A stretch of 32,000 bases of DNA. Origin: Gemmata obscuriglobus. GTDB lineage: Bacteria; Planctomycetota; Planctomycetia; Gemmatales; Gemmataceae. Both the position numbers and the translations under genes were made by a program. Below, piece after piece: positions 7,112 to 22,923 of this stretch; position 1 is the first letter of the stretch; every line of letters starts with the position of its first letter. Location: the NCBI RefSeq assembly GCF_008065095.1, contig NZ_CP042911.1, forward strand, positions 7,830,001-7,862,000, written 5' to 3'. A model generated the notes under the pieces. It had not been told where the DNA came from, searched no databases, and worked only from the letters and a program-made list of their open reading frames with translations.

Positions 7112-7186
7112 CTAACGTACAACAGCCGCCCCATTATGAACGCCCTTTCGACCCGAGCCGGCGGGGAAACCGTCGTACTGGAATGA
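7112..7186 (+). pseudogene. Displaced 3' tail of the DUF1559 gene
   Basis: After removing the IS and one CTAA, ...DGSVRFL continues as TYNSRPIMNALSTRAGGETVVLE*, a typical DUF1559 C-terminal ending. The stop overlaps the next ATG (gaATGa). Confidence 0.6.
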
Positions 7187-7992
7187 CTACGATGTTGGAC
7201 CGCGGCGGGACGACAGAGCGGGCCTACCGGTGCGTCGCGGTGGTCCTTGGGGCCGTCCTGGTTACAGCGGCCGTCTTGAAGCTCGTGTCGGCCTGGCAAG
7301 GGCACGCCGGGTTCGGGCCGTATGGCGGACGGGCCGTTTGGGCAGGGGCCGTGACGGCCGAACTCTGCGTCGGGACCTGGCTGGCCGCGGGAGCGGCCCC
7401 CGCCACGGCCCGGGGAGCGGCGGCCGCCATGTTCACCGTCTTCTTTGTTGTCGCCTCGGCGAAGGCGGCCGCCGGGGAGGCGACGTGCGCCTGCTTTGGG
7501 GCCGCCCGGATCGCACCGGCGGCCATGGCCGCGTTCGACGGGTTGGCCCTGGTCGCACTGGCCGCACTGAAACCCCGGCCCCGGCCCGCGAGTCCCCGGT
7601 TCCTCGCAGCCGCGGCGGTATTCTCGCTCTCGGCCGCGGCCCTGACGACCGGCGTCGGACTGACGAGCCCCTCCACGATCGGGGGACCGCATCCCCCTGC
7701 GGAGCTCCACCTCGGGGTGGTTAAGGCTGGCGGAACCGCAAAAGGCTTGCTGAGAGTGCCGGTCGTACAGAACCAGTCCGGGCGACTCGCGCCGCCGAGC
7801 GTAAGTTGCACCTGTTTGGCGGTCACCCAACAGGTGCAAGAGGGAGGAGAAGAGCAAACGGTTTTGCTTTCGATTTGCTTGGATTTATGCAGCAAGCCAG
7901 AGTTTCGAGGAAGTCTCCGGATCGAAGTCGAAGGATCATGGGCCGACGGAAAACAAGCATATAATTGTTTTGTCCTCTGCGAAGTCCAGTAA
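7183..7992 (+). CDS. MauE/DoxX-like membrane protein fused to a DUF1573-like domain
   Basis: N-terminal ~130 aa with several hydrophobic helices and a CACFG motif, as in MauE-type redox-associated membrane proteins. C-terminal part is LHLGVVKAGG...SCTC...LRIEVEG (DUF1573-like). Confidence 0.7.
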   Translation: MTTMLDRGGTTERAYRCVAVVLGAVLVTAAVLKLVSAWQGHAGFGPYGGRAVWAGAVTAELCVGTWLAAGAAPATARGAAAAMFTVFFVVASAKAAAGEATCACFGAARIAPAAMAAFDGLALVALAALKPRPRPASPRFLAAAAVFSLSAAALTTGVGLTSPSTIGGPHPPAELHLGVVKAGGTAKGLLRVPVVQNQSGRLAPPSVSCTCLAVTQQVQEGGEEQTVLLSICLDLCSKPEFRGSLRIEVEGSWADGKQAYNCFVLCEVQ

Positions 7993-8560: not shown

Positions 8561-8808
8561 CGTCACGCGTCCGCGTCGGTACCGTCGAGGTGCAGGTGCG
8601 GGCTCACCCCCTGGCCGCCCCGCAGCTCGATCACCCGGTCGGCGCGCCCCTGCGTCAGCAGGGCGGTCAGGTCCACGCCCAGCTCCTTGAGCCGCCCCAG
8701 GTGCGCCCGCTGCCGCTCGTCGGTCCGGCACGCACCTCCTGCTCCGCCTCCTGGCGCTTGCGCGTCGGGTCGATCTCGGTGCCCACCTCGATCGCCGGCT
8801 CGGTGCGC
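8561..8808. repeat. Direct repeat copy B, shortened duplicate of 36..350
   Basis: See copy A. It has a 66-nt deletion and a 1-nt deletion relative to copy A. Confidence 0.85.
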
Positions 8809-9165
8809 AGGCTCGACCGATTCCGTTTCCGTCCGGCCGTACAGCCGGTCGATGGCGTCCCGGATCTCGTCCCGCGGGTACTGCGCGAACGCGATGTACT
8901 TGTTCAGGAGGAACGACAGCTTGTCCCGGAGCAGGACGTCCGACGGGTAGGCGGTGGCGACGTGAACGGTGCGGCCGTCGAGTCGCACGGCCAGTACGGT
9001 GTGCGCGCGTGCGACCGATTCGGGGATCAGTTGGACGACTGCGAGCGGCGGGGAGCGGGCGGGCACGCCGGCCGGCGCCCCGTGGCCTCTTGTTCCGCGA
9101 TGTGCTGTGCGCCCCGGCGCCGGATCAGCGTGGGGATCATCTGATAGCCAGGATATTAGCCACAA
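8563..9165 (-). CDS. T2SSE_N (GspE/MshE N-terminal)-domain protein with a chimeric 3' end
   Basis: LIPESVARAHTVLAVRLDGRTVHVATAYPSDVLLRDKLSFLLNKYIAFAQYPRDEIRDAIDRLYG fits the GspE N-terminal domain pattern. The last third is repeat copy B, and about 32 of its codons are read in a frame different from copy A. The N-terminal 40 aa are compositionally doubtful. Confidence 0.5.
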   Translation of the reverse strand: MWLISWLSDDPHADPAPGRTAHRGTRGHGAPAGVPARSPPLAVVQLIPESVARAHTVLAVRLDGRTVHVATAYPSDVLLRDKLSFLLNKYIAFAQYPRDEIRDAIDRLYGRTETESVEPAHRAGDRGGHRDRPDAQAPGGGAGGACRTDERQRAHLGRLKELGVDLTALLTQGRADRVIELRGGQGVSPHLHLDGTDADA

Positions 9166-9265
9166 AAAGGCACAACGGGCGCAAAAGGGAGCCGAAGGCA
9201 GAGGACTGATTCAATTGACTATCTGTCTCCGGTTCCCTTTTGTGCCCGTTGTGCCTTTTTGTGGC
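9159..9265. repeat. Hairpin of the GCCACAAAAAGGCACAA(A/C)GGGC repeat family (32-bp arms, 43-nt loop)
   Basis: Arms at 9159-9190 and 9234-9265 are complementary in 31/32 positions. The same family occurs at 23284-23336 and 24652-24889. Confidence 0.85.
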
Positions 9266-9373
9266 CGTAGTTTCGTCTTTCTCTGCGATCACGGCATACG
9301 GTGCCGGGCTCGGCACGACGCGGCTCCGCGGAGCCCGCGCCGCCGACCCGTATACCACCGCGGCCAGTTCGGC
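9191..9373 (-). repeat. Possible decayed terminal attC-like site of the array
   Basis: A GCCGAAC core (minus strand; + strand GTTCGGC at 9367-9373) directly follows the stop of 9374..9724. The nearest partner core is GCCGAAG at 9191-9197. The interior is occupied by one arm of the 9159..9265 hairpin. Confidence 0.25.
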
Positions 9374-9736: not shown

Positions 9737-9837
9737 GCCGAACGACACGCTCACCGGCCCGGCCGCGACACGAACGCGTGAGGGCAAGGAGGAACAGACC
9801 ACGTGCAGGGAGGGTCCGGTGCGGCACCGGGTTCGGC
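9737..9837 (-). repeat. attC-like cassette-boundary repeat (101 bp, divergent centre)
   Basis: + strand GCCGAAC at 9737-9743 and GTTCGGC at 9831-9837. The inner stem CACCGG/CCGGTG is kept. Confidence 0.65.
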
Positions 9838-9843
9838 GTGCCT

Positions 9844-10326
9844 CTACTCCTCGGTGACCTCAACGGTCGGGTACTCGGCCCCGACGTGGGCGCCCGGGCA
9901 GCGGCTCAGCACGACCTCTCGGGACCACAGGCACTCGAGGCTGTACACGGGGTGGATGGAGTTCTGAAACAGGTTGTCCCCGATCCCGTCCGACCACTGC
10001 CCCATCGTGTACTCGACCAGCGCCCGCAACTCGGCCGGCGCGAGCGGCCGCGGCGACCGGTACTCGGTCGTGGCGGTCAGTAACGGCTCGCCGGCGCGGT
10101 GCCCGAAGGTGATGACCCCGCCGGGCTCGAGCACCGCGGCCAGTTCCAGCTCCTCCGGCGTCGGGTGGAGGCCGCCCGGCCCGAGGTAGTCGGTGAACGT
10201 CTCGTCGTCGGCGACGAGGCCGTCGAGCGTGCTCAGGATGTCGGGGTCGGTCACCACCTGACACGGGTCCTCGTGCGGCCCCGGGGAGCAGACGCAAGCG
10301 TACCCACGGATCGCGATTCGAATCAC
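9844..10326 (-). CDS. Cassette ORF, hypothetical protein (160 aa)
   Basis: GTG start 6 nt after a GGAGGG that follows the core at 10343. Balanced amino-acid composition. The stop lies 6 nt before the next repeat. Confidence 0.6.
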   Translation of the reverse strand: MIRIAIRGYACVCSPGPHEDPCQVVTDPDILSTLDGLVADDETFTDYLGPGGLHPTPEELELAAVLEPGGVITFGHRAGEPLLTATTEYRSPRPLAPAELRALVEYTMGQWSDGIGDNLFQNSIHPVYSLECLWSREVVLSRCPGAHVGAEYPTVEVTEE

Positions 10327-10342
10327 GTCACGCCCTCCGCTC

Positions 10343-10427
10343 GCCGAACAACCCGCTCACCCGCCACCATCGGCTGAGCGGTGCGCCCCGAATCAGCGGC
10401 GGCGCCGGGGGCCACGCCGGGTTCGGC
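10343..10427 (-). repeat. attC-like cassette-boundary repeat (85 bp)
   Basis: Cores at 10343-10349 and 10421-10427. Consensus-like centre (...ggctgagcggtgcgccccgaatcag...). Confidence 0.7.
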
Positions 10428-10473
10428 TCGGCCTTACACGCGGCCGACGCCTCGCACCCGACGGCCCGCACGG

Positions 10474-10773
10474 TCAGTCCCTCCGGCACCACGCGGCGGT
10501 GACCGCGCAACCGATCCAGAAGGCCCAAAAGAATGCACAGAACAGCACCGCGGCTCCGATGCCTACGAGCCAGCCGCCACGGCCCGAAAGCGGTGCGACG
10601 CACGCCTCCCCGAGCACGAACGGGAACGACAGCCCCATCACGCGGGTGGCCCACCACCGCGCACGGCGGTAAGCCGCGACCGCCGCTCCGGCCCGCGTCC
10701 CGCGCCGCACGGGTGCCGAGCGCCCCTCCCCGGCGCGCGCGGCTTCCGGCGGCGGAGGCACAGGAACAAACAT
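10474..10773 (-). CDS. Cassette ORF, small membrane protein (99 aa)
   Basis: ATG at 10773, shortly after the core at 10788. Two hydrophobic helices (VMGLSFPFVLGEACV, WLVGIGAAVLFCAFFWAFWIGCAV). Confidence 0.45.
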   Translation of the reverse strand: MFVPVPPPPEAARAGEGRSAPVRRGTRAGAAVAAYRRARWWATRVMGLSFPFVLGEACVAPLSGRGGWLVGIGAAVLFCAFFWAFWIGCAVTAAWCRRD

Positions 10774-10787
10774 CGCGCCCTCTGCTT

Positions 10788-10865
10788 GCCGAACAACAAC
10801 CTCACCTGCACTGCCATCACCCATGAGCGATGCGTCACCAATCAGCCGGCGTTGCCGGGTTCGGC
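10788..10865 (-). repeat. attC-like cassette-boundary repeat (78 bp, shortened 3' arm)
   Basis: Cores at 10788-10794 and 10859-10865. The stop of 10842..11288 lies inside. Confidence 0.7.
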
Positions 10866-11288
10866 CCGGCTTCCCCCGGCCTCGGCCCACCACGCGGCGA
10901 GTTGTGGGGGCGGTTCCTCCCACCCCATCCAACTGCCCCAGTACTCGACCACCCATCGCCCGATCGCAGACCGCTGGTCTTGGGTGAAGGATTGGGGGGC
11001 GAACTCACCGCCGGTCAGCGCCGCCTCCAATGAGTCGACCTGCATGCCATTGGACCCGAATGCCGACAGCATGAACGCCGGCAGGTAGTACCGCTGGGCG
11101 GCCGGGGTGAGCAGCGGGAACGCGTGGTGACATTCCCTGGGAAAACCGGCGGCCACCTCCGGCCACGGCTGCCCCCCGAGCAACACGTCGGCCGCGTCGC
11201 ACTCCGGGCACCGGTGCTCAGTGATCGGACGCGGAGGGAGCGGTGCGTCCGGGAACGCCTCTCGCAACTGCCGCAACAGGGACCGCAC
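10842..11288 (-). CDS. Cassette ORF, Cys-x-E-C / YYLPAFM motif protein (DUF6714-like, tentative)
   Basis: GTG start after GGAGG. Motifs HRCPECD...LLGGQPWPEV...QRYYLPAFM. The last residues, AEPGNAG, are encoded by the repeat. Confidence 0.65.
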   Translation of the reverse strand: MRSLLRQLREAFPDAPLPPRPITEHRCPECDAADVLLGGQPWPEVAAGFPRECHHAFPLLTPAAQRYYLPAFMLSAFGSNGMQVDSLEAALTGGEFAPQSFTQDQRSAIGRWVVEYWGSWMGWEEPPPQLAAWWAEAGGSRAEPGNAG

Positions 11289-11305
11289 GCCGGTAGCCTC
11301 CGCTC

Positions 11306-11349
11306 GCCGAAGATTCAGCCCACCGGCACCGCCGGGGTCGGTCTCGGCG
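11306..11349 (-). repeat. Truncated attC-like repeat (~44 bp)
   Basis: GCCGAAG at 11306-11312 plus arm CACCGGCACCGCC, then an abrupt GGTCTCGGC. The centre and second arm are missing. Confidence 0.5.
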
Positions 11350-11351
11350 AC

Positions 11352-11588
11352 CTACGGCCCGGTCAGCAGTTTCACCAGCGCCATCAGCGCGACCACGAGC
11401 GTGACACCGACGATCACGACCCACATGTACGCCCGCTGCGCCCGGACGGCCCCCTTCTGGAGGGCGACGGACTTCTTCTGGAGGTCGAACGACTCGTCCA
11501 ACACCCGCCGCCGGTAGGCCAACTCCTCCCGCTGCGCGTCACGGATCTCGGTCAGCAGACGGAGGATCTGTTGCTCGGCTTCGCTCAC
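11352..11588 (-). CDS. Cassette ORF, small coiled-coil protein with C-terminal TM helix (78 aa)
   Basis: GTG start after GGGAGAGGG. C-terminal helix YMWVVIVGVTLVVALMALVKLL. Confidence 0.6.
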   Translation of the reverse strand: MSEAEQQILRLLTEIRDAQREELAYRRRVLDESFDLQKKSVALQKGAVRAQRAYMWVVIVGVTLVVALMALVKLLTGP

Positions 11589-11605
11589 GCGGGTCGCCCT
11601 CTCCC

Positions 11606-11686
11606 ACAGGACATCAAGCTCACGGCACCGCCATCACCGGATGAGCGGTGCGTCACCAATCCGCCGGCGCCGCCCCGGGCGCGGCG
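11606..11686 (-). repeat. Degenerate attC-like repeat (consensus centre, mutated cores)
   Basis: ctcacggcaccgccatcaccggatgagcggtgcgtcaccaat matches the family consensus. Both terminal cores have diverged. Confidence 0.5.
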
Positions 11687-12151
11687 CTATTCCTTGGCCC
11701 TGATCAGTACGCGCTCTTCGGTCTCGACCACCAATGTTATCTTGTCACCCGGTTGGCAACGATGGCCGAGTTGGTATTCGTGCCATCCGCCGTCGCCGAA
11801 CCGCACCTTGAGTGTTTCCAGAACGAGCGGCTCGGGATACCTCTCGCTCCAAACCTCCAGCGGTTCCCCTTCGATGGTGGCCTTCCGCGTCCAGTTTGTG
11901 GCATACGAGCGGCGTTTGTCCGGACGATCCACCGACTTACACTTCATCCCGAATTCTTGGATCGGCACCCCGGTTCGGTTGTGAACCCATACCGTGGTCT
12001 CGGCGCTGTTGTTCCTCAGTTGCTGCTCCCTCATCAGCGCGTCGAGCGCGGTCATATCACGATCAGTTTGGAAGGCACAGCCCGCCGTCCAAACGAGCGC
12101 GCCGCCGCAGAGCATCACGCGAGCGAATCGCATCACCGAGTTTGCAACCAT
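11687..12151 (-). CDS. Cassette ORF, lipoprotein (154 aa)
   Basis: ATG at 12151 after AAGGAAG. Signal and lipobox MVANSVMRFARVMLCGGALVWTAGC. Confidence 0.65.
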   Translation of the reverse strand: MVANSVMRFARVMLCGGALVWTAGCAFQTDRDMTALDALMREQQLRNNSAETTVWVHNRTGVPIQEFGMKCKSVDRPDKRRSYATNWTRKATIEGEPLEVWSERYPEPLVLETLKVRFGDGGWHEYQLGHRCQPGDKITLVVETEERVLIRAKE

Positions 12152-12169
12152 ACGTGCTTCCTTGCTGGC

Positions 12170-12256
12170 GCCGAACTTACCACTCACCGACCCCGCCATC
12201 AACTGCACCGCGGCGCCGAATCAGCCGGCGGTGCCCGGTGCCGTGCCGGGTTCGGG
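12170..12256 (-). repeat. attC-like cassette-boundary repeat (87 bp, variant centre)
   Basis: GCCGAAC at 12170-12176 and GTTCGGG at 12250-12256. The stop of 12221..12700 lies inside. Confidence 0.7.
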
Positions 12257-12700
12257 GCGCTCGCGGCCCCCGGCCCAGGCCCGCACGTCCGCCAGGAACG
12301 GCTCGAACCCCGGCCAGTACACCTCCGACTCCCGCACCTCGAACCGCCGCCACCCGACCGCGAACCGCACCGCCCGGTCGCTGAACGTGTCGGCGTCGTC
12401 CTCCCGGCGGAGGTCCACCACGGACCACCACTCGACCGCCGCCCACCGGAGGACGAACCCGCCCACAAGCCGGGGCCGCCTGGAGACGCCGTCGGGGCCG
12501 ACCTCCACCCGTGTCCGCAGGTGGGCGACGCCGAGCAGGGCCACCGCCACCGCAAACGGGGGGAAGCAACACACGCCGACCGCGTCGCCCGGGTGCCCGC
12601 GGAGGCCGGCGCCCAAGCCGACGATCAGCACAACGGCGGCGATACTCACGACCAGCCACCCCTGGTCGCGCCGCGGACGATAAACCCGTGGCCAGTCCAC
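12221..12700 (-). CDS. Cassette ORF, membrane protein (159 aa), possibly bacterial PH-like
   Basis: GTG at 12700, 4 nt after GGAGG. Two N-terminal hydrophobic helices. The tail EPGTAPGTAG is encoded by the repeat. Confidence 0.55.
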   Translation of the reverse strand: MDWPRVYRPRRDQGWLVVSIAAVVLIVGLGAGLRGHPGDAVGVCCFPPFAVAVALLGVAHLRTRVEVGPDGVSRRPRLVGGFVLRWAAVEWWSVVDLRREDDADTFSDRAVRFAVGWRRFEVRESEVYWPGFEPFLADVRAWAGGRERPEPGTAPGTAG

Positions 12701-12709
12701 TGCGCCTCC

Positions 12710-12800
12710 ACCGAAGAACAACCTTGACCGGCACCGCCATCACCTGCACCGCGGCGCGCCCCGAATCCGCCCGCGGTGTCAGGGCCGCACCTGGGCCGGC
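12710..12800 (-). repeat. attC-like repeat with degenerate cores (~90 bp)
   Basis: ACCGAAGAAC at 12710-12719 ... GGCCGGC at ~12794-12800. The centre resembles the 12170 copy (cacctgcaccgcggcg). Confidence 0.55.
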
Positions 12801-12802
12801 AT

Positions 12803-13432
12803 CTACCGGTTTTCGGGCCGCTCCCAGCGAGCTTTGACGACCAGTGCCCAACGGGCCTTCTTCACCGCCTCTTCCAGCGGCTCTCCGTCCATTCGCCCGT
12901 CCGTGCGGACCACGAACGCCCACACCGGTACCACCTCGCCTTCCGCCAACTCCCGTGGCTCGGCCAGGTCCACCGCGCGGCTCATTTGCCCCATGTCCGA
13001 CACTTCCGGGACGGCAGCCGTGTAGGAGTGCGAGGCCCCCTGACCGGACGGCGTAGCCACCGCCGTCACCAGCCGGTACACTCGGCCCCCTTTGGAGTCG
13101 TGTGCCTCCCGAATGGAGAACGACACCTCACTCGGCCCGCGCACCCGCGACTTCGACGAGCCCAGAGTACGCGGCTTTCCCATCTCCCAGAGTTCGGGCT
13201 CGAAGCCGAAAAAGAGGTCCTCGTCGGGGGCGTCGAGACGGAGGCAGCCGGTCGCCGTCAGGTCAAGGTGAGGGGAGAGGCGGCCGAGCTCTCCGGTCAG
13301 CAGCTTGGCCGGCGCGACGCGGACGACTCGGGCGGGCGCCCCTGAATCGGTTGGCGCGGTCGGCGACCGGCGGCACCCGCCGACCACCGCCAGGACGATG
13401 GCGCAGAAGAGTCCCACACACCAGCGTTTCAT
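12803..13432 (-). CDS. Cassette ORF, lipoprotein (209 aa)
   Basis: ATG start. Signal and lipobox MKRWCVGLFCAIVLAVVGGC. Confidence 0.65.
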   Translation of the reverse strand: MKRWCVGLFCAIVLAVVGGCRRSPTAPTDSGAPARVVRVAPAKLLTGELGRLSPHLDLTATGCLRLDAPDEDLFFGFEPELWEMGKPRTLGSSKSRVRGPSEVSFSIREAHDSKGGRVYRLVTAVATPSGQGASHSYTAAVPEVSDMGQMSRAVDLAEPRELAEGEVVPVWAFVVRTDGRMDGEPLEEAVKKARWALVVKARWERPENR

Positions 13433-13449
13433 ACCGGACCCCTTCTGTG

Positions 13450-13498
13450 GCCGAACAACACCTTCACCGGCTTTACGGCACGCCGCGGCTGGCGCGAC
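13450..13498 (-). repeat. Short attC-like repeat (~49 bp)
   Basis: GCCGAAC at 13450-13456 plus CACCGGC, followed by a short divergent second half ending at the stop of 13499..13966. Confidence 0.5.
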
Positions 13499-13966
13499 TC
13501 AGTTGAGCCCCTTACATACTCGGATCTGCTGATGCACCTGCTCGACGAACTCATCAAAGTCTCCAACTCCGCGCCGTGCCCGAGCAATGAGCAGCGCCGG
13601 TACACCCGCATCGGTCACGAGCTGAGCGAATTCGGTTTTGCGGACGGTTGCCAATGCCACCGACGCACAGACCAGGCCGACCCCACCGACGAGAACGGCA
13701 CCGAGCCCCAGGGGGTCGAGCTTGAGCCCTTCCACAAGCACCGGCCAGCCGCACCCCGCTAGCGTCGCGCCCATGAGTCCCGACCAAAATGTACTGCTCC
13801 TCAGCCGCAACCAATCCACTCGCGGTTGCAGTCCGGCCAGCGGCAGCATGGCCTCGATCTCGCCCCGAAGGAAGATCGTGCTGGTGACACGGATCGCATC
13901 AAGTAACAGCACGAACCGGTGCCGGCCCTCAAACGTGACCGCTTCGTACACTGCAATCGCATCCAC
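13499..13966 (-). CDS. Cassette ORF, membrane protein (155 aa)
   Basis: GTG start after GGGGGAGG. Hydrophobic helices in the C-terminal half. Confidence 0.55.
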   Translation of the reverse strand: MDAIAVYEAVTFEGRHRFVLLLDAIRVTSTIFLRGEIEAMLPLAGLQPRVDWLRLRSSTFWSGLMGATLAGCGWPVLVEGLKLDPLGLGAVLVGGVGLVCASVALATVRKTEFAQLVTDAGVPALLIARARRGVGDFDEFVEQVHQQIRVCKGLN

Positions 13967-13988
13967 GCAACCCTCGCCTCCCCCGCGT

Positions 13989-14079
13989 ACCGAACAACAA
14001 CCTCACCGGCACCGCCGCCACCGGATGAGCGGTGCGTCCCGAGTCAGCCGGCGGTGCCCGGTGCCGCACCGGGTTCGGC
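13989..14079 (-). repeat. attC-like cassette-boundary repeat (91 bp, near-consensus)
   Basis: ACCGAAC at 13989-13995 and GTTCGGC at 14073-14079. Perfect 13-bp inner stem CACCGGCACCGCC / GGCGGTG-C-CCGGTG with one unpaired base. Confidence 0.75.
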
Positions 14080-14093
14080 GTCACCCGACGTGG

Positions 14094-14984
14094 CTACTTC
14101 CGTTGGCCCGATACCTTGGCTCCGGCCTTCTCCAGCGATTCCACGATCTCCTGGCTGGAGTGCTTGCGCGCGTAGTCCAGGATGTTCGGGTAAAACTTCC
14201 CACCGGTCACGTCCGTTTTGGCCCCCCGAGCGAGCAAAAGCTTGACGATCTCTTTGTCCCCGGCCCAGACCGCGTTTGTCAAAGCGGTGGCCTCCCCGCC
14301 GGCGTTGGGCATGAACGTCCCCTCGTTCACGTCGGCCCCGGCGTCCAGAAGGAGTTGAACGATCTCCTTGTCCTTCCGGCCGGCGGCCAGCCCCAGCGGG
14401 GTGATACTTCCCCACAGGTTCGATCCCTCGGACGGCCGCCGCGCCAGCTTCGGATCGTCCTTGAGCATCTTCTTGACCGCGTCCCGCTTCTTGAGCATGA
14501 TCGCCGACCGCAAGTCGAGCGCGACGCCGGAGGCCAGGACGGCCTCGGCGACATCCGCGTGTTCGTCCTCGGCCGCCCGTTGAAGAGGCGTGTTCCCCCA
14601 AGCGTCCTTCCGGTTCAGATCCGCCCCGGCCTTGATCAGAAGTTTGGCGACAGCCGCGTTACTGACGACGTGCATCGGGGTGTACCGGTTGTAGGAGACG
14701 GAGTTCACGTCGGCCTTCTGATCGATCAGCCACTTGGCCGTTTCCACGCGGCCGTACCGGGCCGCGTAATGCAGAGCGGTGCAGTCGGATTCGTCCGCGT
14801 CGTGGACGAGTGACGGGTTCTGCTTCACCAGCTTCAGGATCGCGTCGTCTTTTCCATCGGCGAACGTCGTGTGCAGCGCTTTGAGGACGGCAGGATCGGT
14901 ACGTTTGGGCTCCTCGGCGCGGGAAGCACCGCCCGCGCCCACGAGACACAAACACCCGATCAGGAGCAACGACGCCGTTCGCAT
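14094..14984 (-). CDS. Cassette ORF, secreted ankyrin-repeat protein (296 aa)
   Basis: ATG at 14984 after AAGGAGGA. Signal peptide MRTASLLLIGCLCLVGAGGASRA. Repeated TALHYAA/TPLQRAA...G..VN ankyrin units. The 400-aa ORF in the track is a read-through extension across the repeat. Confidence 0.85.
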   Translation of the reverse strand: MRTASLLLIGCLCLVGAGGASRAEEPKRTDPAVLKALHTTFADGKDDAILKLVKQNPSLVHDADESDCTALHYAARYGRVETAKWLIDQKADVNSVSYNRYTPMHVVSNAAVAKLLIKAGADLNRKDAWGNTPLQRAAEDEHADVAEAVLASGVALDLRSAIMLKKRDAVKKMLKDDPKLARRPSEGSNLWGSITPLGLAAGRKDKEIVQLLLDAGADVNEGTFMPNAGGEATALTNAVWAGDKEIVKLLLARGAKTDVTGGKFYPNILDYARKHSSQEIVESLEKAGAKVSGQRK

Positions 14985-15016
14985 GACCTTCCTCCTTGCT
15001 CTACCACACGCAGCAC

Positions 15017-15108
15017 GTCGAACAAACTGATCACCGGCACCGCCCACCACCGGATGAGCGATGCGCACCGAATCAGCCGGCGGTGTCCGGTGGCGTGCCG
15101 GGTTCGGC
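15017..15108 (-). repeat. attC-like cassette-boundary repeat (92 bp)
   Basis: GTCGAAC at 15017-15023 and GTTCGGC at 15102-15108. The stop of 15073..15555 lies inside. Confidence 0.75.
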
Positions 15109-15555
15109 GCCTTGCTCCACGGCACGGACGGCCTGTGGGTCGAGGTAGACCGCGACCGGCCACATGCAGTCCGACCGCTCGGTGCCGACCACGCGGCCGC
15201 ACGCACAGATGCGATTGGGGCCGTGGGCACCGCTCGGCCCGCAGCACCCGATCCAACGCCCCCGCTCCGGGTGGTTGCCCACCCCGACCAGCGCACCCGG
15301 TCGGACCGCGAAACAGCCCGTGAAGTCCACCGGCTGGCCGTCGAAGTTGCTCGGCAGGTGCCCGGCCGCGACCGGCCAGTAATGCTTCTCCGGTACGAGC
15401 GGGGCCAATTCCTTCTCGCAAAGGGCCGCCGCGTCGTCCAACCGCCGCAGCGGCGCGGTCAGCGCGGTTCCGCATCCTCGGCATGCGAACACCGCGACCG
15501 CCGGCGGAGGGGGTGGGACGTGCCACGACTCCTGATGTCGCTGGACCCGCTTCAC
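15073..15555 (-). CDS. Cassette ORF, cysteine-rich hypothetical protein (160 aa)
   Basis: Contains CRGCG...GCCGPSGAHGPNRICACG...DC, a putative metal-binding pattern. The tail AEPGTPPDTAG is encoded by the repeat. Confidence 0.6.
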   Translation of the reverse strand: MKRVQRHQESWHVPPPPPAVAVFACRGCGTALTAPLRRLDDAAALCEKELAPLVPEKHYWPVAAGHLPSNFDGQPVDFTGCFAVRPGALVGVGNHPERGRWIGCCGPSGAHGPNRICACGRVVGTERSDCMWPVAVYLDPQAVRAVEQGAEPGTPPDTAG

Positions 15556-15575
15556 GCCGTGCAGCCCTCAAGGTT

Positions 15576-15666
15576 GCCGAACAAACCGCTCACCTGCACC
15601 GCCATCACCGGATGAGCGGTGCGTCACAATACAGCCGGCGGCGTCAGGTGCCGCGCCGGGTTCGGC
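15576..15666 (-). repeat. attC-like cassette-boundary repeat (91 bp)
   Basis: Cores at 15576-15582 and 15660-15666. Inner stem CACCTG/CAGGTG. Confidence 0.75.
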
Positions 15667-15669
15667 AGG

Positions 15670-16311
15670 TCAGGGCGGACCGGGCCGGCGACTCCCCACG
15701 ACGGCCAACTTCAACGCTCGCGTTGCTTCCTTTCGCACGCCGGCGTCAGGACTCCGAACCGCCCGGGTGAGCGGTCCGACCACGTCATCACGGACGAACG
15801 GCTCCCGCTCCACGATCCGACCCAGCAGTTGGGCGACCAACGGCTGGACAGAGGCGTCCCCCGACTTTAGCCCCTTGACCAAACCCGGGACGGCGTCGGA
15901 CCCGAGATAGTCGAGCGTCTGGAACGCATCGGAACGGATCGGCTCGTCCGCCCCGAGTGCCGTGATGAGTGTCGGTACCAAGTTCGGCTGCCGATCCACA
16001 AGCCCCTCCGGGCGGAGGGACAGCTCCGCGTACAGTTCGCCCCCGCGGAAGTCGGAGGCGAGCCGGAACCGGGCCGGCTTCTTGGGGTCGCATCGCACCT
16101 CGGCCGACCCGCGCAGCAATTCCTTCTCGCCACGGGCGTCCGTGACCGAGTACGACACCGACACCCGCAAGCCGCCGCCCACAGCCCGGACCGCGTCGTA
16201 TGAGACGTCCCACTTGTAGTCCTCATCACCGACCCGGAACGGCAGCCCGTTGTGGTAGGTCTGACGGCCGAGCCGGCCCCATGCCTTGTCCTCCCGGAGC
16301 AATTTGGCCAT
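15670..16311 (-). CDS. Cassette ORF, HEAT-repeat protein; probably the 3' part of a gene starting at 16447 and frameshifted at a G7 run
   Basis: The C-terminal half has HEAT/PBS-lyase-like repeats (VPTLITALGADEPIRSDAFQTL..., LVAQLLGRIVE..., AGVRKEATRALK). ORF 16226..16465 encodes a signal peptide and joins in frame if one G of 16314-16320 is removed. Confidence 0.6.
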   Translation of the reverse strand: MAKLLREDKAWGRLGRQTYHNGLPFRVGDEDYKWDVSYDAVRAVGGGLRVSVSYSVTDARGEKELLRGSAEVRCDPKKPARFRLASDFRGGELYAELSLRPEGLVDRQPNLVPTLITALGADEPIRSDAFQTLDYLGSDAVPGLVKGLKSGDASVQPLVAQLLGRIVEREPFVRDDVVGPLTRAVRSPDAGVRKEATRALKLAVVGSRRPGPP

Positions 16312-16472
16312 AGCCCCCCCGGTCGCCGTTCTGCGGTTGGTGGAACAGCCGCAGGTGGCCTCCGGCAGACGTCGGGTATCGATCCGGAGGGATCGCCTGA
16401 TCGCCCGGTAGAAGGCAGACCAGACCGACGGCCATGAAAGAGAACATTCCCGGACTCCTTTCCACTTCTGCG

Positions 16473-16563
16473 GCTGAACAATGAGCTCACCTGCACCGCC
16501 ACCATCGGATGAGCGATGCGTCCCAGATCAGATGGCGGTGTCAGGTGTAGCGCCGGGTTCGAC
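16473..16563 (-). repeat. attC-like cassette-boundary repeat (91 bp)
   Basis: GCTGAAC at 16473-16479 and GTTCGAC at 16557-16563. Perfect inner stem with one unpaired T. The stop of 16528..16971 lies inside. Confidence 0.75.
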
Positions 16564-16971
16564 GTGCCTGGGCTGCACCCGAACGCCGACTTCCTGCCCG
16601 ACCCGGCCGGCCACCCAAACGAACGGGGCCACGATACCGACCACCAGAAGGGCCGCGCCCCAAGTCTTCGAGTCCGAAGGATATTGGACCAACTGGACGG
16701 CGGGGAACAGGAACAGCAGGGCCGGCACCCAGGCAACCGGCCACACCCGGTACAGGCTTGACCGCCACCCGTCCCACGCACCGACCGCTCCGTTTACGGC
16801 ACCCAGCGCGACCAAGGTCGCGATGTACGGAACGGATTCCGACTCGGTGAGCGCGGACCACTCCGCACGGCCGTCCCATACACAGGCGGCGATGAATACG
16901 ACCGGGGCCAAGGCACCGGCGATCAGGCCGATGACGGCCCCCGCGACGATCCCCCCAGCACGCCGCCCCAT
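16528..16971 (-). CDS. Cassette ORF, polytopic small membrane protein (147 aa)
   Basis: ATG after GGAGGG. Four hydrophobic helices. The tail EPGATPDTAI is encoded by the repeat. Confidence 0.6.
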   Translation of the reverse strand: MGRRAGGIVAGAVIGLIAGALAPVVFIAACVWDGRAEWSALTESESVPYIATLVALGAVNGAVGAWDGWRSSLYRVWPVAWVPALLFLFPAVQLVQYPSDSKTWGAALLVVGIVAPFVWVAGRVGQEVGVRVQPRHVEPGATPDTAI

Positions 16972-16987
16972 CGGTGCGCCCTCCGCC

Positions 16988-17098
16988 CCCGAACATTAAG
17001 GTCACCGGTCCGGCCGCGGCACCAGTCGCGCAGACGGACACCCGGCAAGCAGCGGGAAACCGATCACGTGGCCGGGTCCGGTGCCACGCGGGTTCGGC
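16988..17098 (-). repeat. attC-like cassette-boundary repeat (111 bp, divergent centre)
   Basis: CCCGAAC at 16988-16994 and GTTCGGC at 17092-17098. Inner stem CACCGG-T-CCGGCC / GGCCGG-GT-CCGGTG, i.e. a different sequence with the same architecture. Confidence 0.7.
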
Positions 17099-17135
17099 CT
17101 CTTGCGGGGCGAGGTGCCGAGCCGACGTGGGCGAG

Positions 17136-17846
17136 TCACTTCGCCGGTTGCGTGAGCCGGAACTGATCGATAGTGACCTCGAACTGGGCTTGGTAGGAGT
17201 TCTCGGCTACCACCCCGACGCGAACCGTCTCTTCCCAGCCGACCCGGTGGTCCGACTTGATCTCGTGCCACGTCTTGCCGTCACGGCTCCAAAAAGATGC
17301 GACCGCCTTTCCGGCTCGGGTGAGCCGCACGTAGCCGGCATCTCCCGGCCCGTCCTTGTCAACCGCGCTGGCACCGTAACTGCGATTGGTGGTGTAATGG
17401 TTGAAGTGAAAGTTCTCTTGTTGCGGGTTGGGGATCGGCCGGGGGAACGTGAACTCTGTCCGCACCACCTGCACCACCTCACCCCCGGCCATGGCGAGCA
17501 GACCAGCCCTCGACTCCGCCCTCTGACTATCGCCCGGGGGCGTGACCACGCGGATCGGGAACGCGACCCGGACGGTGGCGGTAAAGTCTCCCTTGACCTC
17601 ATTCCAGGTGTAGGGAGCGTTCATCCGGCTCGCGTCCTCGACCACATGACGGGTCGCCGGGATCGTGATCTGGAGCGCGTCCCGCTTGAGTTCAAAAGTA
17701 CAGTCCTTGTCCGGATCGACGGGTGTGCCGTAGAGCCGACGCAACCGTGTGTCGCCGTCCTCTTTCGGAACCGGCGCGGCCGCGGACACAAACGTCACCA
17801 GGAACGCAAGGGCCGACGTGCTGGCGAGTGGACCCCATCGCTTCAT
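17136..17846 (-). CDS. Cassette ORF, secreted ConA-like lectin/glucanase-fold protein (DUF1349-type, tentative)
   Basis: ATG at 17846. Signal peptide MKRWGPLASTSALAFLVTFVSAAAP. Motifs ...APYTWNEVKGDFTATVRV...AGLLA...VRLTRAGKAVASFWSRDGKTWHEI. Confidence 0.7.
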   Translation of the reverse strand: MKRWGPLASTSALAFLVTFVSAAAPVPKEDGDTRLRRLYGTPVDPDKDCTFELKRDALQITIPATRHVVEDASRMNAPYTWNEVKGDFTATVRVAFPIRVVTPPGDSQRAESRAGLLAMAGGEVVQVVRTEFTFPRPIPNPQQENFHFNHYTTNRSYGASAVDKDGPGDAGYVRLTRAGKAVASFWSRDGKTWHEIKSDHRVGWEETVRVGVVAENSYQAQFEVTIDQFRLTQPAK

Positions 17847-17952
17847 ACACATCTCCGTGTTCTGCACCCCGAGTCGAGAGCGTTCCGAGATTCGAAGCCA
17901 ATTCAAGCTTCTCATCCGCCTCGTGCCCGAGGCTCACCGCTTGCGTGGTGCC

Positions 17953-18042
17953 GCCGAACATCAGCTCACTGGCCGCGGGGAGCCGCGATCCGATCGGGAA
18001 AGTAGACATTTTGCCGTGGTCCGGTGCGGCGCCGGGTTCGGC
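17953..18042 (-). repeat. attC-like cassette-boundary repeat (90 bp, divergent centre)
   Basis: Cores at 17953-17959 and 18036-18042. The inner stem is maintained with G-T pairs. Confidence 0.7.
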
Positions 18043-18052
18043 TCGCCTTTGC

Positions 18053-18568
18053 TCAGAACCCCTTCTTGAGCTTACCATACACTGCCTGTTCCTTCTCGGG
18101 CCACCTCCAGTACACGACCGCCGCCCATCGGTTCGGATTGGCCGGGTCGGACCAGCGGTTCCACTCCCGGTCCGCACGGAAGATGTTCTTGCCCCCGTTC
18201 CACCACCGCAGTTCGAATTCCTCGACCTCCGGCCCCCACGCGCGTCGCTCCGTCGGAGGCCCGAGTAATCGCTCGACCTCTTCCCGGCTTGCTCCCGCCT
18301 GAATCTGGCCGAATCGCTCTGCAACTAGACCGAAGTCGAGGGGCGTCGGTGGTGGGGCAACAGCCCGCGCGCGCTCGGCCGCCTGCGCCCGCTCGATGTT
18401 GGTGACCGCATGCCGCGTCCAAAGGATCAGGACCATGATCCCGGCCAGCCAAGTCAGGTCGATGAGGACTTGGGTCTGGCGCGGGGTGAGTTGCCGCTCG
18501 TTGCCCGGTTGCGGTTCGGGCGCGTGCGACGGGGGTGGTGGATAGCTCGGCAATGATGCGTAGTCCAT
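18053..18568 (-). CDS. Cassette ORF, membrane-anchored protein with BamE/SmpA-like segment (171 aa, tentative)
   Basis: ATG at 18568, 4 nt after GAGGAGGGG. One TM helix (LTWLAGIMVLILW). QIQAGASREEVERLLGPP resembles the SmpA/OmlA motif. Confidence 0.65.
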   Translation of the reverse strand: MDYASLPSYPPPPSHAPEPQPGNERQLTPRQTQVLIDLTWLAGIMVLILWTRHAVTNIERAQAAERARAVAPPPTPLDFGLVAERFGQIQAGASREEVERLLGPPTERRAWGPEVEEFELRWWNGGKNIFRADREWNRWSDPANPNRWAAVVYWRWPEKEQAVYGKLKKGF

Positions 18569-18589
18569 CGCCCCTCCTCGGCTTCTGTG

Positions 18590-18680
18590 ACCGAACATTA
18601 AGCTCGCCGGCACCGCCATCACCGGATGAGCGGTGCGCCCCTGATCACCCGGCGGTGTCAGGTGCCGCGCCGGGTTCGGA
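18590..18680 (-). repeat. attC-like cassette-boundary repeat (91 bp)
   Basis: ACCGAAC at 18590-18596 and GTTCGGA at 18674-18680. The stop of 18645..19646 lies inside. Confidence 0.75.
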
Positions 18681-18950
18681 CTCTGCGGCTCGCACCGGCA
18701 GCGATGCCAGCCACTCGCGGAACAACTCCGGATTGTCCCGTACGCAGTCCGGGCAGAACACCACGCTGACGTACTTCAGGTAGCGGCCGACCACCGGGTC
18801 GCCCCGGTAGATGGTGGCACGGCACGACTCGCAGTGCGTGTGCCCGCCCTCGTCCGGCGACGACCGCCAGCCGTGCATCGGCTCCAGTGGCAACGGGAAG
18901 TGCTGCGGGTATTTCCGCAACCGCTCAAGCACCTCGGCTGGTACCTTCAT
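18645..18950 (-). CDS. Cassette ORF, small CxxC...CxxC zinc-ribbon-like protein (101 aa) if translated from its own ATG
   Basis: ATG at 18950, preceded by ACAGAGGG directly after the core at 18971. HCESC and FCPDC motifs. Tail EPGAAPDTAG. Confidence 0.45.
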   Translation of the reverse strand: MKVPAEVLERLRKYPQHFPLPLEPMHGWRSSPDEGGHTHCESCRATIYRGDPVVGRYLKYVSVVFCPDCVRDNPELFREWLASLPVRAAESEPGAAPDTAG

Positions 18951-19646
18951 CGGTCGAGAGCCCTCTGTGTGCCGAACGATGAGCTCACCTGCACCGCCAT
19001 CACCGGATGAATGGTGCGTTCCAGACCCGATGGCGGTGTCAGGCGCCGCGCCGGGTTCGGCCGCGCCACCTTGGGCGAACACCATCGCCTTTTCAACATC
19101 GACCAGCGCCTCGATGGCGTCTGCGTACTTCGGGTCGATCTCGATTGCCTTTCGGAAGCACTCGGCCGCCTCGCTCAATCGGCCTTGTCCGCGAAGGACA
19201 AGACCGAGGTTGTGATACGCTTCGTCCCGCAGCCAAGATTCCGCCCACTGGGTCGCGGCCCGGTGCGTCGCCTCGGCTTCGTTCAGCTTCCCCTGACGAG
19301 CTTGGCACGCACCGAGGAACATGTAGCTCGCGAGTTCATCCGGCTCGATCTCGATCGCCTTCCGGAACCACGGTTCCGCTCGCGCGGGGTGCCCCCAGTA
19401 CTGGTACATGCGTCCGAGCTGGTTGTAGATCGCCCAACGTCCATCCTCCTCGATCTTGCCGAGTGCGTTCTCGTATACGCCGATGGCCTCCTCGTACCGC
19501 GTCATCTTGTACAACATCTCAGCGTAATTGAGAATGATGCCAAGATCATCCGGGTGGGACTGGAGCCAAAGCGGGGCCAACAGAACGGTCGTCGCGGCGT
19601 GGTCATTGCGGAATGCTTCCTCGACCATTTCGCGGGTCACTTCCAC
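18645..19646 (-). CDS. TPR-repeat protein ORF that reads through the repeat at 18971..19061 into the downstream cassette ORF (333-aa fusion)
   Basis: GTG at 19646 after GAGGG. TPR units (AIGVYENALG..., AEPWFRKAIEIEPD, AAECFRKAIEIDPKYADA). This repeat copy has lost the usual in-frame TGA (atcgggtct instead of ggctgattc). Confidence 0.55.
   Translation of the reverse strand: MEVTREMVEEAFRNDHAATTVLLAPLWLQSHPDDLGIILNYAEMLYKMTRYEEAIGVYENALGKIEEDGRWAIYNQLGRMYQYWGHPARAEPWFRKAIEIEPDELASYMFLGACQARQGKLNEAEATHRAATQWAESWLRDEAYHNLGLVLRGQGRLSEAAECFRKAIEIDPKYADAIEALVDVEKAMVFAQGGAAEPGAAPDTAIGSGTHHSSGDGGAGELIVRHTEGSRPMKVPAEVLERLRKYPQHFPLPLEPMHGWRSSPDEGGHTHCESCRATIYRGDPVVGRYLKYVSVVFCPDCVRDNPELFREWLASLPVRAAESEPGAAPDTAG
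18971..19061 (-). repeat. attC-like cassette-boundary repeat (91 bp), translated within ORF 18645..19646
   Basis: Cores at 18971-18977 and 19055-19061, checked against codon positions. Confidence 0.75.
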
Positions 19647-19662
19647 CGTGCTGCCCTCTGTG

Positions 19663-19753
19663 GCCGAACAGAAAGCTCACCTGCACCGCCATCACCGGAT
19701 GAGCGATGCGTTCCGAATCAGCTTGCGGCGTCCGGTGCCGCGCCGGGTTCGGC
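19663..19753 (-). repeat. attC-like cassette-boundary repeat (91 bp)
   Basis: Cores at 19663-19669 and 19747-19753. Confidence 0.75.
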
Positions 19754-19769
19754 GCCTGAACTCAGCCGG

Positions 19770-20270
19770 CTACTTGCCTTGTCGCCGGAGTACCGTCAGC
19801 ACGAGCGAGGAATTGGCGGGCGAATCGAATGACGTCGGGCGTTGCGCACCGGTGTTGTCGTAGCAGACGGTGAGTCGGTCGCCCTCCAATTTGTAAATCC
19901 CCGGCCGGCGCTTCTTCCCGAACGGCATCGCCGCGTCGTCGTCCATTTGCTTCGGGCTGGCAGTCGGATCGACCCAGATGGTGGACTTGATCGGGGACAG
20001 CCGTTGACCGTCGGCGCGGTGCACTTCCCGCGTCATGGTGTCCTCGCGGATGACGATGGTGCTCCTACCCATCTCCGCAGCCGGGATCTCCTTACCCTCA
20101 ACAATCTGCCGCTCGTACACCCACGTCCCCGCGAGCGCGGCCAGTTCGTCAGCCTTTGCCCGCGGGTCCACGTTCGCCCCGACGCCGGGGCCGCTTGGCG
20201 ACCGACTGCACCCGTTGAGCAAAACGATCGTGGCGAATACCACCGACAGCAGTGCGATTCGTCGCTGCAT
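19770..20270 (-). CDS. Cassette ORF, TIGR03067-type planctomycete lipoprotein (166 aa)
   Basis: Lipobox LLNGC. Motifs LAGTWVYE...DP...PKQMD...PGIYKLEGDRLTVCY....RPTSF......LVLTVLRR match the Planctomycetes TIGR03067 domain pattern. Confidence 0.8.
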   Translation of the reverse strand: MQRRIALLSVVFATIVLLNGCSRSPSGPGVGANVDPRAKADELAALAGTWVYERQIVEGKEIPAAEMGRSTIVIREDTMTREVHRADGQRLSPIKSTIWVDPTASPKQMDDDAAMPFGKKRRPGIYKLEGDRLTVCYDNTGAQRPTSFDSPANSSLVLTVLRRQGK

Positions 20271-20283
20271 GCCTGCTCCACTT

Positions 20284-20314
20284 GCCGAACGTGTTGCTCA
20301 CCCGCCGCCGCCGG
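20284..20314 (-). repeat. Half attC-like site (~31 bp)
   Basis: GCCGAAC at 20284-20290 plus ctcacccgccgccgccgg, then directly the stop of 20315..21550. The second arm and core are missing. Confidence 0.5.
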
Positions 20315-21550
20315 TCACCTTGGGGCGTCGGCCTCCGCCTTCTTCACCAGCTCGTCGAGCAGTCCATCCAGCTCCGGGCCGCGGACCGCCTTCGCCCGGA
20401 TCACCCCGGCATGGTCGATTACGTACACCGTCGGCCAGCCGCTCACGTTCCACGCCCGCGGGACCTCGCCGGCGTTACCCTTCGGCCCGCACCAGAACGA
20501 CCGCCACGGCAGCTTAAGCCCCTCGACCACGGCTTTCGCCGCGTCCCGGTCCTCGTCGACGTTGGCCCCGACCGCCGCGAACGGCCGCCCGGCGAACCGC
20601 GCGACCAGCTTCAGTTCCTGCCGCGCGAACACGTGGCACGGCCCACACCGGCTGTGCCAGAACGTCAGCACCGCCACCTTGCCGCGGTAGTCGCTCAGCT
20701 TCATCGCCCGGCCGTCGAGGTCCTCGCCGACGACCTCCGGCGCCTTCTTCCCGACCGCCAGGTGGCGAACCTCGTACGCCTCCTCCTTGGCCCGCTCCAC
20801 GATCGACACGCCGCGGTGCAGTTCGCCGGGCACCTGCTTCGCGACCAGTTGGTCGAGGATGCCCAGCGCCTCGACCTCGAGCTTGGCCGCGTCCCGCTTG
20901 CGGACCTTGGAGATGAAGTCCCGGCCGTACCGCCGGGCGATCGACGGGTCGGACATCCGGGCGACCTCGGCCTTCTCCTTCAGGTGCACGGCCAGCGCGA
21001 ACTGCAGCAAGGCCCGCTCCTTCGGGGTCCTAGCCCGCTCGGCGAGGAGGCCGCGGATGATCGGCTCGCGGAAGTCGTCGCACCCCCCACCCCGCCCAAA
21101 TTGGGCCCAGCTCAGCACGATCGGGTTGGACAGGTGGTGCCGGCCCATCAGGGCACCGGCCTCCTCCCGGTCGTCGCTGCCGCCGTGCATCGTTGCAAAG
21201 GCCAGCCCCATGTACACCTGCGGGTCTGCGGCGTGCTCGCGCAGCAGCGGCATGAGGGCGCGGGCCGCGGCGCGGTCGGTCGTCTTCAGCTCCTCGCCCG
21301 CGTCGGCCGCCCACTTGTCGACCGCGTCCTGCTCGGCCGGGGCCTTCGCCTTCCCGCCCCTCGCGGCGTACTCCTCGTACATCTTCCGCTCACGGCCCTT
21401 CTGGACTTTGACTGCCGCCTCGATCTCGGCGACCCACGCCGGCTGGTCGCGTGGGGGTGAACTCGCGGGGGGTGTCGGGGGATCGGCCAGGGCGGGGTTG
21501 AGGAGAAAGCTGACGCCGCAGAACACCGCCCCAAACAACACGCACCTCAT
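20315..21550 (-). CDS. Cassette ORF, secreted TlpA-like thiol:disulfide oxidoreductase (thioredoxin fold) with N-terminal helical domain (411 aa)
   Basis: Signal peptide, then APEVVGEDLDGRAMKLSDYRGKVAVLTFWHSRCGPC...GWPTVYVIDHAGVIR (CxxC thioredoxin-like motif). Confidence 0.85.
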   Translation of the reverse strand: MRCVLFGAVFCGVSFLLNPALADPPTPPASSPPRDQPAWVAEIEAAVKVQKGRERKMYEEYAARGGKAKAPAEQDAVDKWAADAGEELKTTDRAAARALMPLLREHAADPQVYMGLAFATMHGGSDDREEAGALMGRHHLSNPIVLSWAQFGRGGGCDDFREPIIRGLLAERARTPKERALLQFALAVHLKEKAEVARMSDPSIARRYGRDFISKVRKRDAAKLEVEALGILDQLVAKQVPGELHRGVSIVERAKEEAYEVRHLAVGKKAPEVVGEDLDGRAMKLSDYRGKVAVLTFWHSRCGPCHVFARQELKLVARFAGRPFAAVGANVDEDRDAAKAVVEGLKLPWRSFWCGPKGNAGEVPRAWNVSGWPTVYVIDHAGVIRAKAVRGPELDGLLDELVKKAEADAPR

Positions 21551-21566
21551 GGTCAGCCCTCATCTT

Positions 21567-21656
21567 GCCGAACTACAGCTCACCTGCACCGCCATCACCG
21601 GATGAGCGGTGCGTCCCGAATCAGCTTGCGGCGTCCGGTGCCGCGCCGGGTTCAGC
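21567..21656 (-). repeat. attC-like cassette-boundary repeat (90 bp)
   Basis: GCCGAAC at 21567-21573 and GTTCAGC at 21650-21656. The stop of 21621..22223 lies inside. Confidence 0.75.
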
Positions 21657-22223: not shown

Positions 22224-22239
22224 TGAAGCACCCTCTGTG

Positions 22240-22331
22240 GCCGAACGATGAAGCTCACCTGCACCGCCCCCTCCCAGGGAGCAATGCGTCGGAAACCACC
22301 TGGCGTTGTCAGGTTCAGCGCCGGGTTCAGC
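22240..22331 (-). repeat. attC-like cassette-boundary repeat (92 bp, divergent centre)
   Basis: GCCGAAC at 22240-22246 and GTTCAGC at 22325-22331. Confidence 0.7.
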
Positions 22332-22352
22332 GTGGCTTCGGCCCGCGGCGAT

Positions 22353-22907: not shown

Positions 22908-22923
22908 CGGTTGTCCTCCTGCC

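Follow-up and report, generated by a model that had tools for sequence, protein, structure and literature searches.

A repeat family with attC geometry in a Gemmata chromosome and its probable place in a decaying cassette array

The ~90-nt repeat at 13989–14079 of the window (the whole 32-kb stretch of DNA analyzed here, to which all positions refer) is very probably an attC site of integron gene cassettes. On the same high level of confidence, the window contains a sedentary chromosomal array of about 20 cassettes (9737–22331), a decaying CALIN. The attC reading was proposed in an earlier note, and it is supported by the published geometry of such sites, by covarying stems, by a one-way array in which the sites follow ORFs, and by the linkage of the same repeat family to integrases in relatives. 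The literature already covers integrons, CALINs and inverted integrases, and for Planctomycetes it reports integrons together with a taxon-specific attC model (PMC4889954, PMC8352920). Our literature search found no description of a Gemmata integron or of this Gemmata array.

The repeat family and its cassette-like layout

Direct-repeat search and pattern matching of the window identify imperfect palindromes of ~90 nt between 9737 and 22331 (Table 1). The focal copy reads ACCGAAC-AACAACCT-CACCGG-CACCGCC-(33 nt)-GGCGGTG-C-CCGGTG-CCGCACCGG-GTTCGGC. Its first base is A instead of G, which reduces the terminal stem to 6 bp plus an A.C mismatch. The 7-bp terminal stem described previously thus holds for the consensus GCCGAAC/GTTCGGC and fails in the focal copy, whereas the variable apical part with its own small hairpin is present there as described. 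A covariance model (R1) built from an alignment (A2) of 11 window copies of similar length detects 17 copies in the window, with scores of 31.6–105.6 bits and E-values of 1e-6 to 4e-27. All 17 copies have a single orientation and lie inside 9737–22331, and the model finds none in the remaining 19 kb of the window. In addition, the R′-L′ arm alone occurs at three more places, referred to as half-sites. Four of the 17 model-detected copies are visibly degenerate, so that together with the half-sites 7 of the 20 sites are affected. The 20 sites follow each other at a spacing of 381–1283 bp, and the attC sites other than the half-sites are 78–111 nt long. An Rfam scan of the window gives no family match.

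Sequence changes between the copies are in line with those listed in the earlier note. The copies at 15576 and 16473 contain CACCTG/CAGGTG, those at 9737, 13989, 15017 and 16988 contain CACCGG/CCGGTG, the inner half is altered in the 16988 copy, where it reads TCCGGCC/GGCCGGG, and T.G and G.T pairs are present in the 17953 copy. The reported imperfect compensation is likewise found at 19663 and 21567, where CACCTG faces CCGGTG with a T.C mismatch. These two copies have three stem mismatches in common (T.C, A.C and C.T), indicating that one was copied from the other, or both from a common parent, after the mutations.

Table 1 Sites, cassette ORFs and probable integrase remnant in the window
Feature	Position	Strand	Score or evidence
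attC, most distal; long variable part, weak inner stem	9737-9837	+	44.2 bits
attC, degenerate; 5-nt deletion in 5′ arm	10343-10427	+	56.6 bits
attC, 3′ arm degenerate	10788-10876	+	45.4 bits
Half-site, R′-L′ arm only, GCCGAAG-N8-CACCGGCACCGCC	11306-11334	+	direct-repeat families D6, D17
attC, degenerate; without both R boxes	11606-11690	+	37.7 bits
attC	12170-12256	+	70.4 bits
attC, degenerate	12710-12800	+	31.6 bits
Half-site, R′-L′ arm only	13450-13471	+	direct-repeat family D6
Focal attC	13989-14079	+ (putative bottom strand)	97.4 bits; 13-bp stem fully paired
Focal attC, 5′ arm	R′ 13989-13995; spacer 13996-14000; L′ 14001-14003; stem 14004-14016	+	
Focal attC, terminal part	variable 14017-14049; hairpin 14019-14023/14030-14034	+	
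Focal attC, 3′ arm, inner	stem 14050-14056; bulge 23 = 14057 (C); stem 14058-14063	+	
Focal attC, 3′ arm, outer	bulge 16 = 14064 (C); L″ 14065-14067; spacer 14068-14072; R″ 14073-14079	+	
attC	15017-15108	+	93.6 bits
attC	15576-15666	+	105.6 bits
attC; minimum-energy fold has both bulges and 3-bp L box	16473-16563	+	102.3 bits
attC; compensated inner stem TCCGGCC/GGCCGGG, long variable part	16988-17098	+	44.1 bits
attC; G.T pairs and compensated inner stem	17953-18042	+	71.7 bits
attC	18590-18680	+	99.8 bits
attC	18971-19061	+	100.1 bits
attC; three stem mismatches as in 21567	19663-19753	+	101.4 bits
Half-site, R′-L′ arm only	20284-20314	+	direct-repeat families D6, D17
attC	21567-21656	+	98 bits
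attC, most proximal	22240-22331	+	73.1 bits
Cassette ORFs	9844-23093	-	GC3 frame analysis, Pfam; most without family match
Ankyrin cassette ORFs	14094-15296 and 22353-23093	-	Pfam
HEAT cassette ORF	15670-16311	-	Pfam
DUF1349 cassette ORF	17136-17915	-	Pfam
TPR domain within cassette ORF	18645-19646	-	Pfam
AhpC/TSA thioredoxin-like cassette ORF	20315-21550	-	Pfam
Probable remnant, last ~30 codons of integron integrase (...ETTVNDTHA...GGTSPLDE)	23092-23190	-	

The window has a G+C content of ~67% and comes from a Gemmata genome, probably that of G. obscuriglobus. One of its proteins has an identical counterpart in assembly GCA_000171775.1 (contig ABGO01000512.1), which belongs to Gemmata obscuriglobus UQM 2246. 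The ORFs between the repeats are all located on the minus strand, as indicated by third-position GC and Pfam domains. On this strand, each ORF is followed by one repeat copy. The one-way repeats, each placed after a minus-strand ORF at the spacing given above, form the layout of integron gene cassettes. No stop codon ends the TPR-domain ORF ahead of the attC at 18971–19061, and the frame continues through this site and the following small cassette. At the DNA level, the window and the other Gemmata loci described below have nothing in common beyond the repeats, and cassette homology was therefore not usable.

Several other elements are found around the array. Two copies of the 5′ portion of an MshEN-domain gene occur at 36–357 and 8561–8815 (98% and 89% identity, 8525 nt apart). 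The duplicates bracket two minus-strand IS transposase genes (2140–3585 and 5632–7857) and a gene encoding a DUF1559/N-methyl protein, a type typical of planctomycetes. This layout suggests that an IS-associated rearrangement took place next to the distal array end. Just upstream of minus-strand gene starts, at 9234–9277, 23285–23328, 24747–24790 and 24807–24850, there is a relatively A/T-rich motif of 44 nt, TTTCTTTTGTGCCCTTTGTGCGTTTTTGTGGCTACTGCCTCTTC (repeat family D8); two of its copies are identical and 60 nt apart, and it may be a promoter or 5′-UTR element. Moreover, a long near-perfect palindrome at 29464–29520, containing CCCACCCCCAACCCCTCCCT and AGGGAGGGGTTGGGGGTGGG, is located between a convergent histidine-kinase gene and PP-binding/hexapeptide-repeat gene, and may act as a bidirectional terminator.

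Geometry and covariation of the stems

Read on the minus strand, the copies follow the consensus GCCGAAC-CCGGCGCGG-CACCKG-R-CACCGCC ... GGCGGTG-CMGGTG-N8-GTTCGGC. When the 5′ arm is set against the reverse-complemented 3′ arm, an extra base always falls on the minus-strand 5′ arm, which corresponds to the plus-strand 3′ arm. Numbered from R″, the elements of the site are the R box (positions 1–7), a spacer (8–12), the L box (13–15), an extrahelical base (16), a 6-bp stem (17–22), an extrahelical T (23) and a further stem (24–30). The unpaired base at position 16 is mostly C, and exactly 6 bp separate the two bulges.

The pairing of the stems is maintained by changes on both sides. In the window copies alone, 88% of the cells are paired, and both-side changes occur in 7 pairs; shuffled data give 2.7 and attain 7 twice in 500 trials. 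A larger alignment (A3) comprises 66 copies, drawn from the window, from two further Gemmata genomes and from a 5.4-kb contig binned under another taxon. It contains 129 double-change cells, compared with 47 ± 5 in shuffles (0/500), confirming the compensatory change in the second stem that the earlier note had suggested checking. When the 3′ partner is slid by 1–3 columns, pairing falls to only 30–42%. Particularly, pair 26:131 is UA in 24 copies and GC in 21, representing a T:A/G:C switch at the K/M position of the consensus; pair 29:127 is AU in 33 and CG in 22, and pair 30:126 is CG in 45 and GC in 13. Because A3 had been fitted to the model, the count was repeated in an alignment-free manner, anchored on the sequence ends. 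In this count 591 of 784 cells pair, as against 537.5 ± 7.7 after shuffling, and none of 2000 shuffles reaches the observed value.

In 64 of the 66 copies the distal bulge keeps its position and arm (T in 59, C in 5), which agrees with the previous observation of a single unpaired base fixed on the plus-strand 3′ arm. The AAC/GTT pairs are preserved in 59–61 of the 66 copies. In addition, a 3-bp helix, GCT/AGC, lies beside the 13-bp stem with one base (mostly C) skipped, and this base constitutes the second bulge. We assign this triplet as the L box. All three of its pairs are possible in 36 of the 66 copies and two pairs in 19 more, and it is visible in the minimum-energy folds of the 16473 and 15576 copies. 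It shows little covariation, with a few compensated changes such as GTT/AAC, and the 5+5 spacer thus depends mainly on conservation. Many window copies carry a T.C mismatch here (CGC for AGC) and the focal copy forms one of the three pairs, which explains why the triplet was missed at first reading. With the L box and the second bulge in place, the unpaired spacer of 8/9 nt described earlier as longer than usual becomes a canonical spacer of 5+5 nt. The G/C at core position 4 pointed out in the same note is real and is a minor departure from the textbook site; it results in a purine in R′ and lies outside the conserved AAC/GTT triplet.

Predicted single-stranded DNA folding does not distinguish the two strands. 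Only a minority of the copies have the attC fold as their minimum-energy structure, its energy averages ~4.5 kcal/mol above the minimum, and the mean minimum energy is −23.6 kcal/mol for the bottom strand versus −23.9 kcal/mol for the top strand. The proposed folding of both strands hence neither singles out the attC fold nor favors one strand, and folding energies, not being decisive, were left out of the support for attC. The strand is instead assigned from ORF direction, integrase position and bulge placement. As noted earlier, the bulges are on the strand complementary to the ORFs, which are on the minus strand by GC3 and Pfam. Relative to the ORF direction, the predicted bulges occupy the arm anticipated for a folded bottom strand, consistent with the placement proposed before.

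This arrangement closely resembles canonical attC sites such as attCaadA7 and VCR2. In the published description (PMC5027507), the extrahelical bases are usually G at position 16 and a conserved T at 23 or 24, a 6-bp stem is required between the first and last extrahelical bases, the spacer has 5–6 nt per arm, R′ is RYYYAAC, and the bulges are near L″ on the bottom strand. The window sites have the same R box with AAC/GTT, 5-nt spacer per arm, L box with extrahelical base 16, 6-bp stem, extrahelical T 23, further stem and variable tip, with the bulges on the L″ arm of the ORF-complementary strand, and their lengths fall within the reported range of 57–141 bp. They differ in having G/C instead of Y/R at R-box position 4, mostly C instead of G at extrahelical position 16, and an L-box T.C mismatch in many copies. 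Moreover, attC sites of mobile integrons have a bottom-strand advantage of ~2 kcal/mol (PMC5027507), whereas the window sites lack a predicted bottom-strand stability advantage.

Integrases beside the family in relatives and probable integrase loss in the window

A scan of species-representative genomes with a loose pattern gave at least 120 matches; of the 120 listed, ~110 are chance matches in unrelated high-GC genomes. Loci among the matches listed belong to Gemmata algarum JC673, a Gemmata MAG and a 5.4-kb contig binned as Alcaligenaceae. In these related loci, model R1 detects 49 further copies, arranged again in one-way arrays. An integron integrase (TIGR02249, cut-off 265 bits) adjoins the array at two loci, L019 (398.7 bits) and L030 (347.9 bits). 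Both genes look damaged: the L019 integrase is missing ~40 N-terminal residues, and that of L030 is truncated and has Asp at the position of the catalytic Tyr. L030 is the Alcaligenaceae-binned contig itself (CAZKIQ010000141.1), and as it carries Gemmata-type attC sites, it is probably mis-binned. A homologue search additionally identified L205, from a planctomycete MAG, with a full-length TIGR02249 integrase (459.5 bits, profile positions 3–314 of 315). The first ORF downstream of this integrase is followed by an attC of the family, which has a different yet paired 6-bp stem (CAGCAG/CTGCTG) and the same C and T bulges.

In L019, L030 and L205, the integrase gene is located upstream of the cassettes on the same strand. 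This lineage has the known inverted-integrase arrangement, like the integrons of the Treponema group and others (PMC4889954, PMC8352920). An attI-like site lies ~150–200 nt past the integrase stop codon in all three. Including a fourth locus, L204, candidate attI sites are found at 1040–1110 (minus strand) in L019, ~1940–2000 in L030, 11070–11112 in L205 and ~1400–1530 in L204. In the motif, which is conserved across the four loci, CA(A/T)|GTTCGGC (GTTAGGC in L204) comes after the inverted repeats GTTAG..TTGCGC / GCGCAA..CTAA. In contrast, many metagenomic integrases with 62–69% identity to the Gemmata integrase (L121–L200) have the usual divergent arrangement, opposite to that of the Gemmata-type loci; where attC sites are detectable, they are upstream of the integrase gene. 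Orientation is thus not closely tied to integrase similarity, in agreement with an earlier report (PMC4889954).

The window itself lacks an intact integrase. Pfam or NCBIfam searches covering all sizeable ORFs within or beside the array detected no integrase domain, and the window likewise lacks the attI-like motif seen in relatives. The cognate IntI presumed in the earlier note is therefore missing from the window ORFs, the only trace of one being a short segment upstream of the first cassette (23092–23190). This segment is matched by the L030 integrase in tblastn (E 5e-4) and by blastn (74.5% over 51 nt, E 0.002), and it is the best six-frame match to the IntI profile (positions 290–323 of 324, E 0.055). 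It is on the cassette strand, in the same position and orientation as the integrase genes of L019, L030 and L205. Each of these scores alone is modest or marginal; the agreement of position and strand with the prediction gives them added weight, and the segment probably represents the 3′ end of an integrase gene.

With 17 model-detected sites and no intact intI in 32 kb, the window corresponds to a CALIN (at least two attC sites, no intI nearby) and is devoid of the intact intI and attI beside the cassettes that characterize a complete integron. Like other CALINs (PMC4889954), it has IS elements close by. An intI pseudogene remnant was reported within 10 kb of 15 of 279 CALINs (PMC4889954), and the window array probably belongs to this minority class. 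It is also larger than most CALINs, with 17–20 sites, as only 6.6% have more than 10 attC sites (PMC4889954). The array resembles Vibrio VCR arrays and the Planctomycetes attC model (PMC8352920) in its many cassettes, mostly of unknown function, in attC sites that are near-identical within a genus and have a long variable tip, and in an attC type common to related species while the cassette content is not. Unlike those sedentary arrays, it has no integrase. The half-sites, the degenerate sites, the nearby IS transposases and the remnant together lead us to read the locus as a decaying chromosomal integron. Most likely, the integrase gene and attI were deleted except for the probable ~100-nt 3′ remnant, leaving a CALIN as a decaying and presumably inactive relic.

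Proposed mechanism, alternative readings and significance

By analogy with known integrons, the window plus strand, when single-stranded, for example during replication, would form an imperfect hairpin in cells. The hairpin would consist of the 7-bp R box (GCCGAAC/GTTCGGC), the 5+5-nt spacer, the 3-bp L box (GCT/AGC), extrahelical base 16 (mostly C), the 6-bp stem, extrahelical T 23, a 7-bp stem and, at the tip, the variable terminal part of ~33 nt, which contains a small hairpin. The R and L boxes would serve as binding sites for an integron integrase, which the two flipped-out bases on the L″ arm would direct to the bottom strand. The cut in R′ would fall within its AAC, separating A from C, and the reaction would excise or insert whole ORF-plus-attC cassettes. 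The window cassettes would be mobile only if an integrase acts in trans.

Such activity is conceivable, as an intact integrase elsewhere in the genome might still reshuffle the cassettes, making the array a live reservoir instead of a relic. In about 10 copies the R boxes are intact and 12–13 of the 13 stem pairs are retained, genomes with CALINs often encode integrases at other loci (PMC4889954), and the mismatches common to the 19663 and 21567 sites point to a site copied after mutation. We nevertheless regard this reading as rather unlikely. Three half-sites and four degenerate sites are gathered in one array, the Gemmata-type integrases are damaged in three of three cases (L019, L030 and the window remnant), and the best 120 database matches include no near-identical full-length Gemmata integrase, though a more distant one may exist. 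The relic of a decaying integron is thus the preferred reading of the array. More tentative still is the proposal that Gemmata-type integrons form a distinct specificity class, defined by C at position 16, a purine at R-box position 4, an inverted integrase and an attI with GTTAG...CTAAC repeats, with arrays structurally constrained across species despite decay of the cis-integrase; we consider it improbable. If it is true, integrases would have to act in trans, or the hairpins would have a second role under selection.

Two further readings would detach the repeats from integrons altogether. An RNA-level 3′-end hairpin after each gene, serving in termination, processing or stabilization, would be equally expected to covary, would sit just downstream of an ORF as every copy does, and would suit the finding that both strands fold about equally well. 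It is very improbable, since the AAC/GTT cores, the 5+5 spacer and the bulges 16 and 23 at 6-bp spacing are attC-specific, Rfam has no match, the copies in the window are confined to one array, and in three relatives the family lies physically beside integron integrases. An intrinsic terminator in particular was rejected because no copy is followed by a T-run. The earlier note had named a terminator hairpin also present outside such arrays as evidence against its reading; no copy is terminator-like, and none occurs outside the array in the window. A REP-like or MITE-like dispersed palindrome, accumulated by chance between short genes, would account for an imperfect palindrome of ~90 nt with many copies in several Gemmata genomes. 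This explanation is barely credible, as all 17 window copies and all copies at each related locus are one-way and co-oriented with the ORFs, the other 19 kb of the window are free of copies, neither target-site duplications nor terminal inverted repeats beyond the R box are found, and, again, the relatives carry integrases beside the family.

The attC assignment opens no new question. Its value is mostly one of annotation, as it establishes what about 20 gene cassettes in a Gemmata chromosome are, on which strand they lie and where they begin and end, and the array documents an integron in the process of integrase loss. The canonical attC geometry, with its 5+5 spacer and bulges at 16 and 23, extends to a planctomycete of high GC content that is remote from the proteobacterial models. 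The sites also constitute a natural test set for two published rules, one describing G16 as no more than 'usual' and the other holding that what matters is the 6-bp distance from bulge to bulge.
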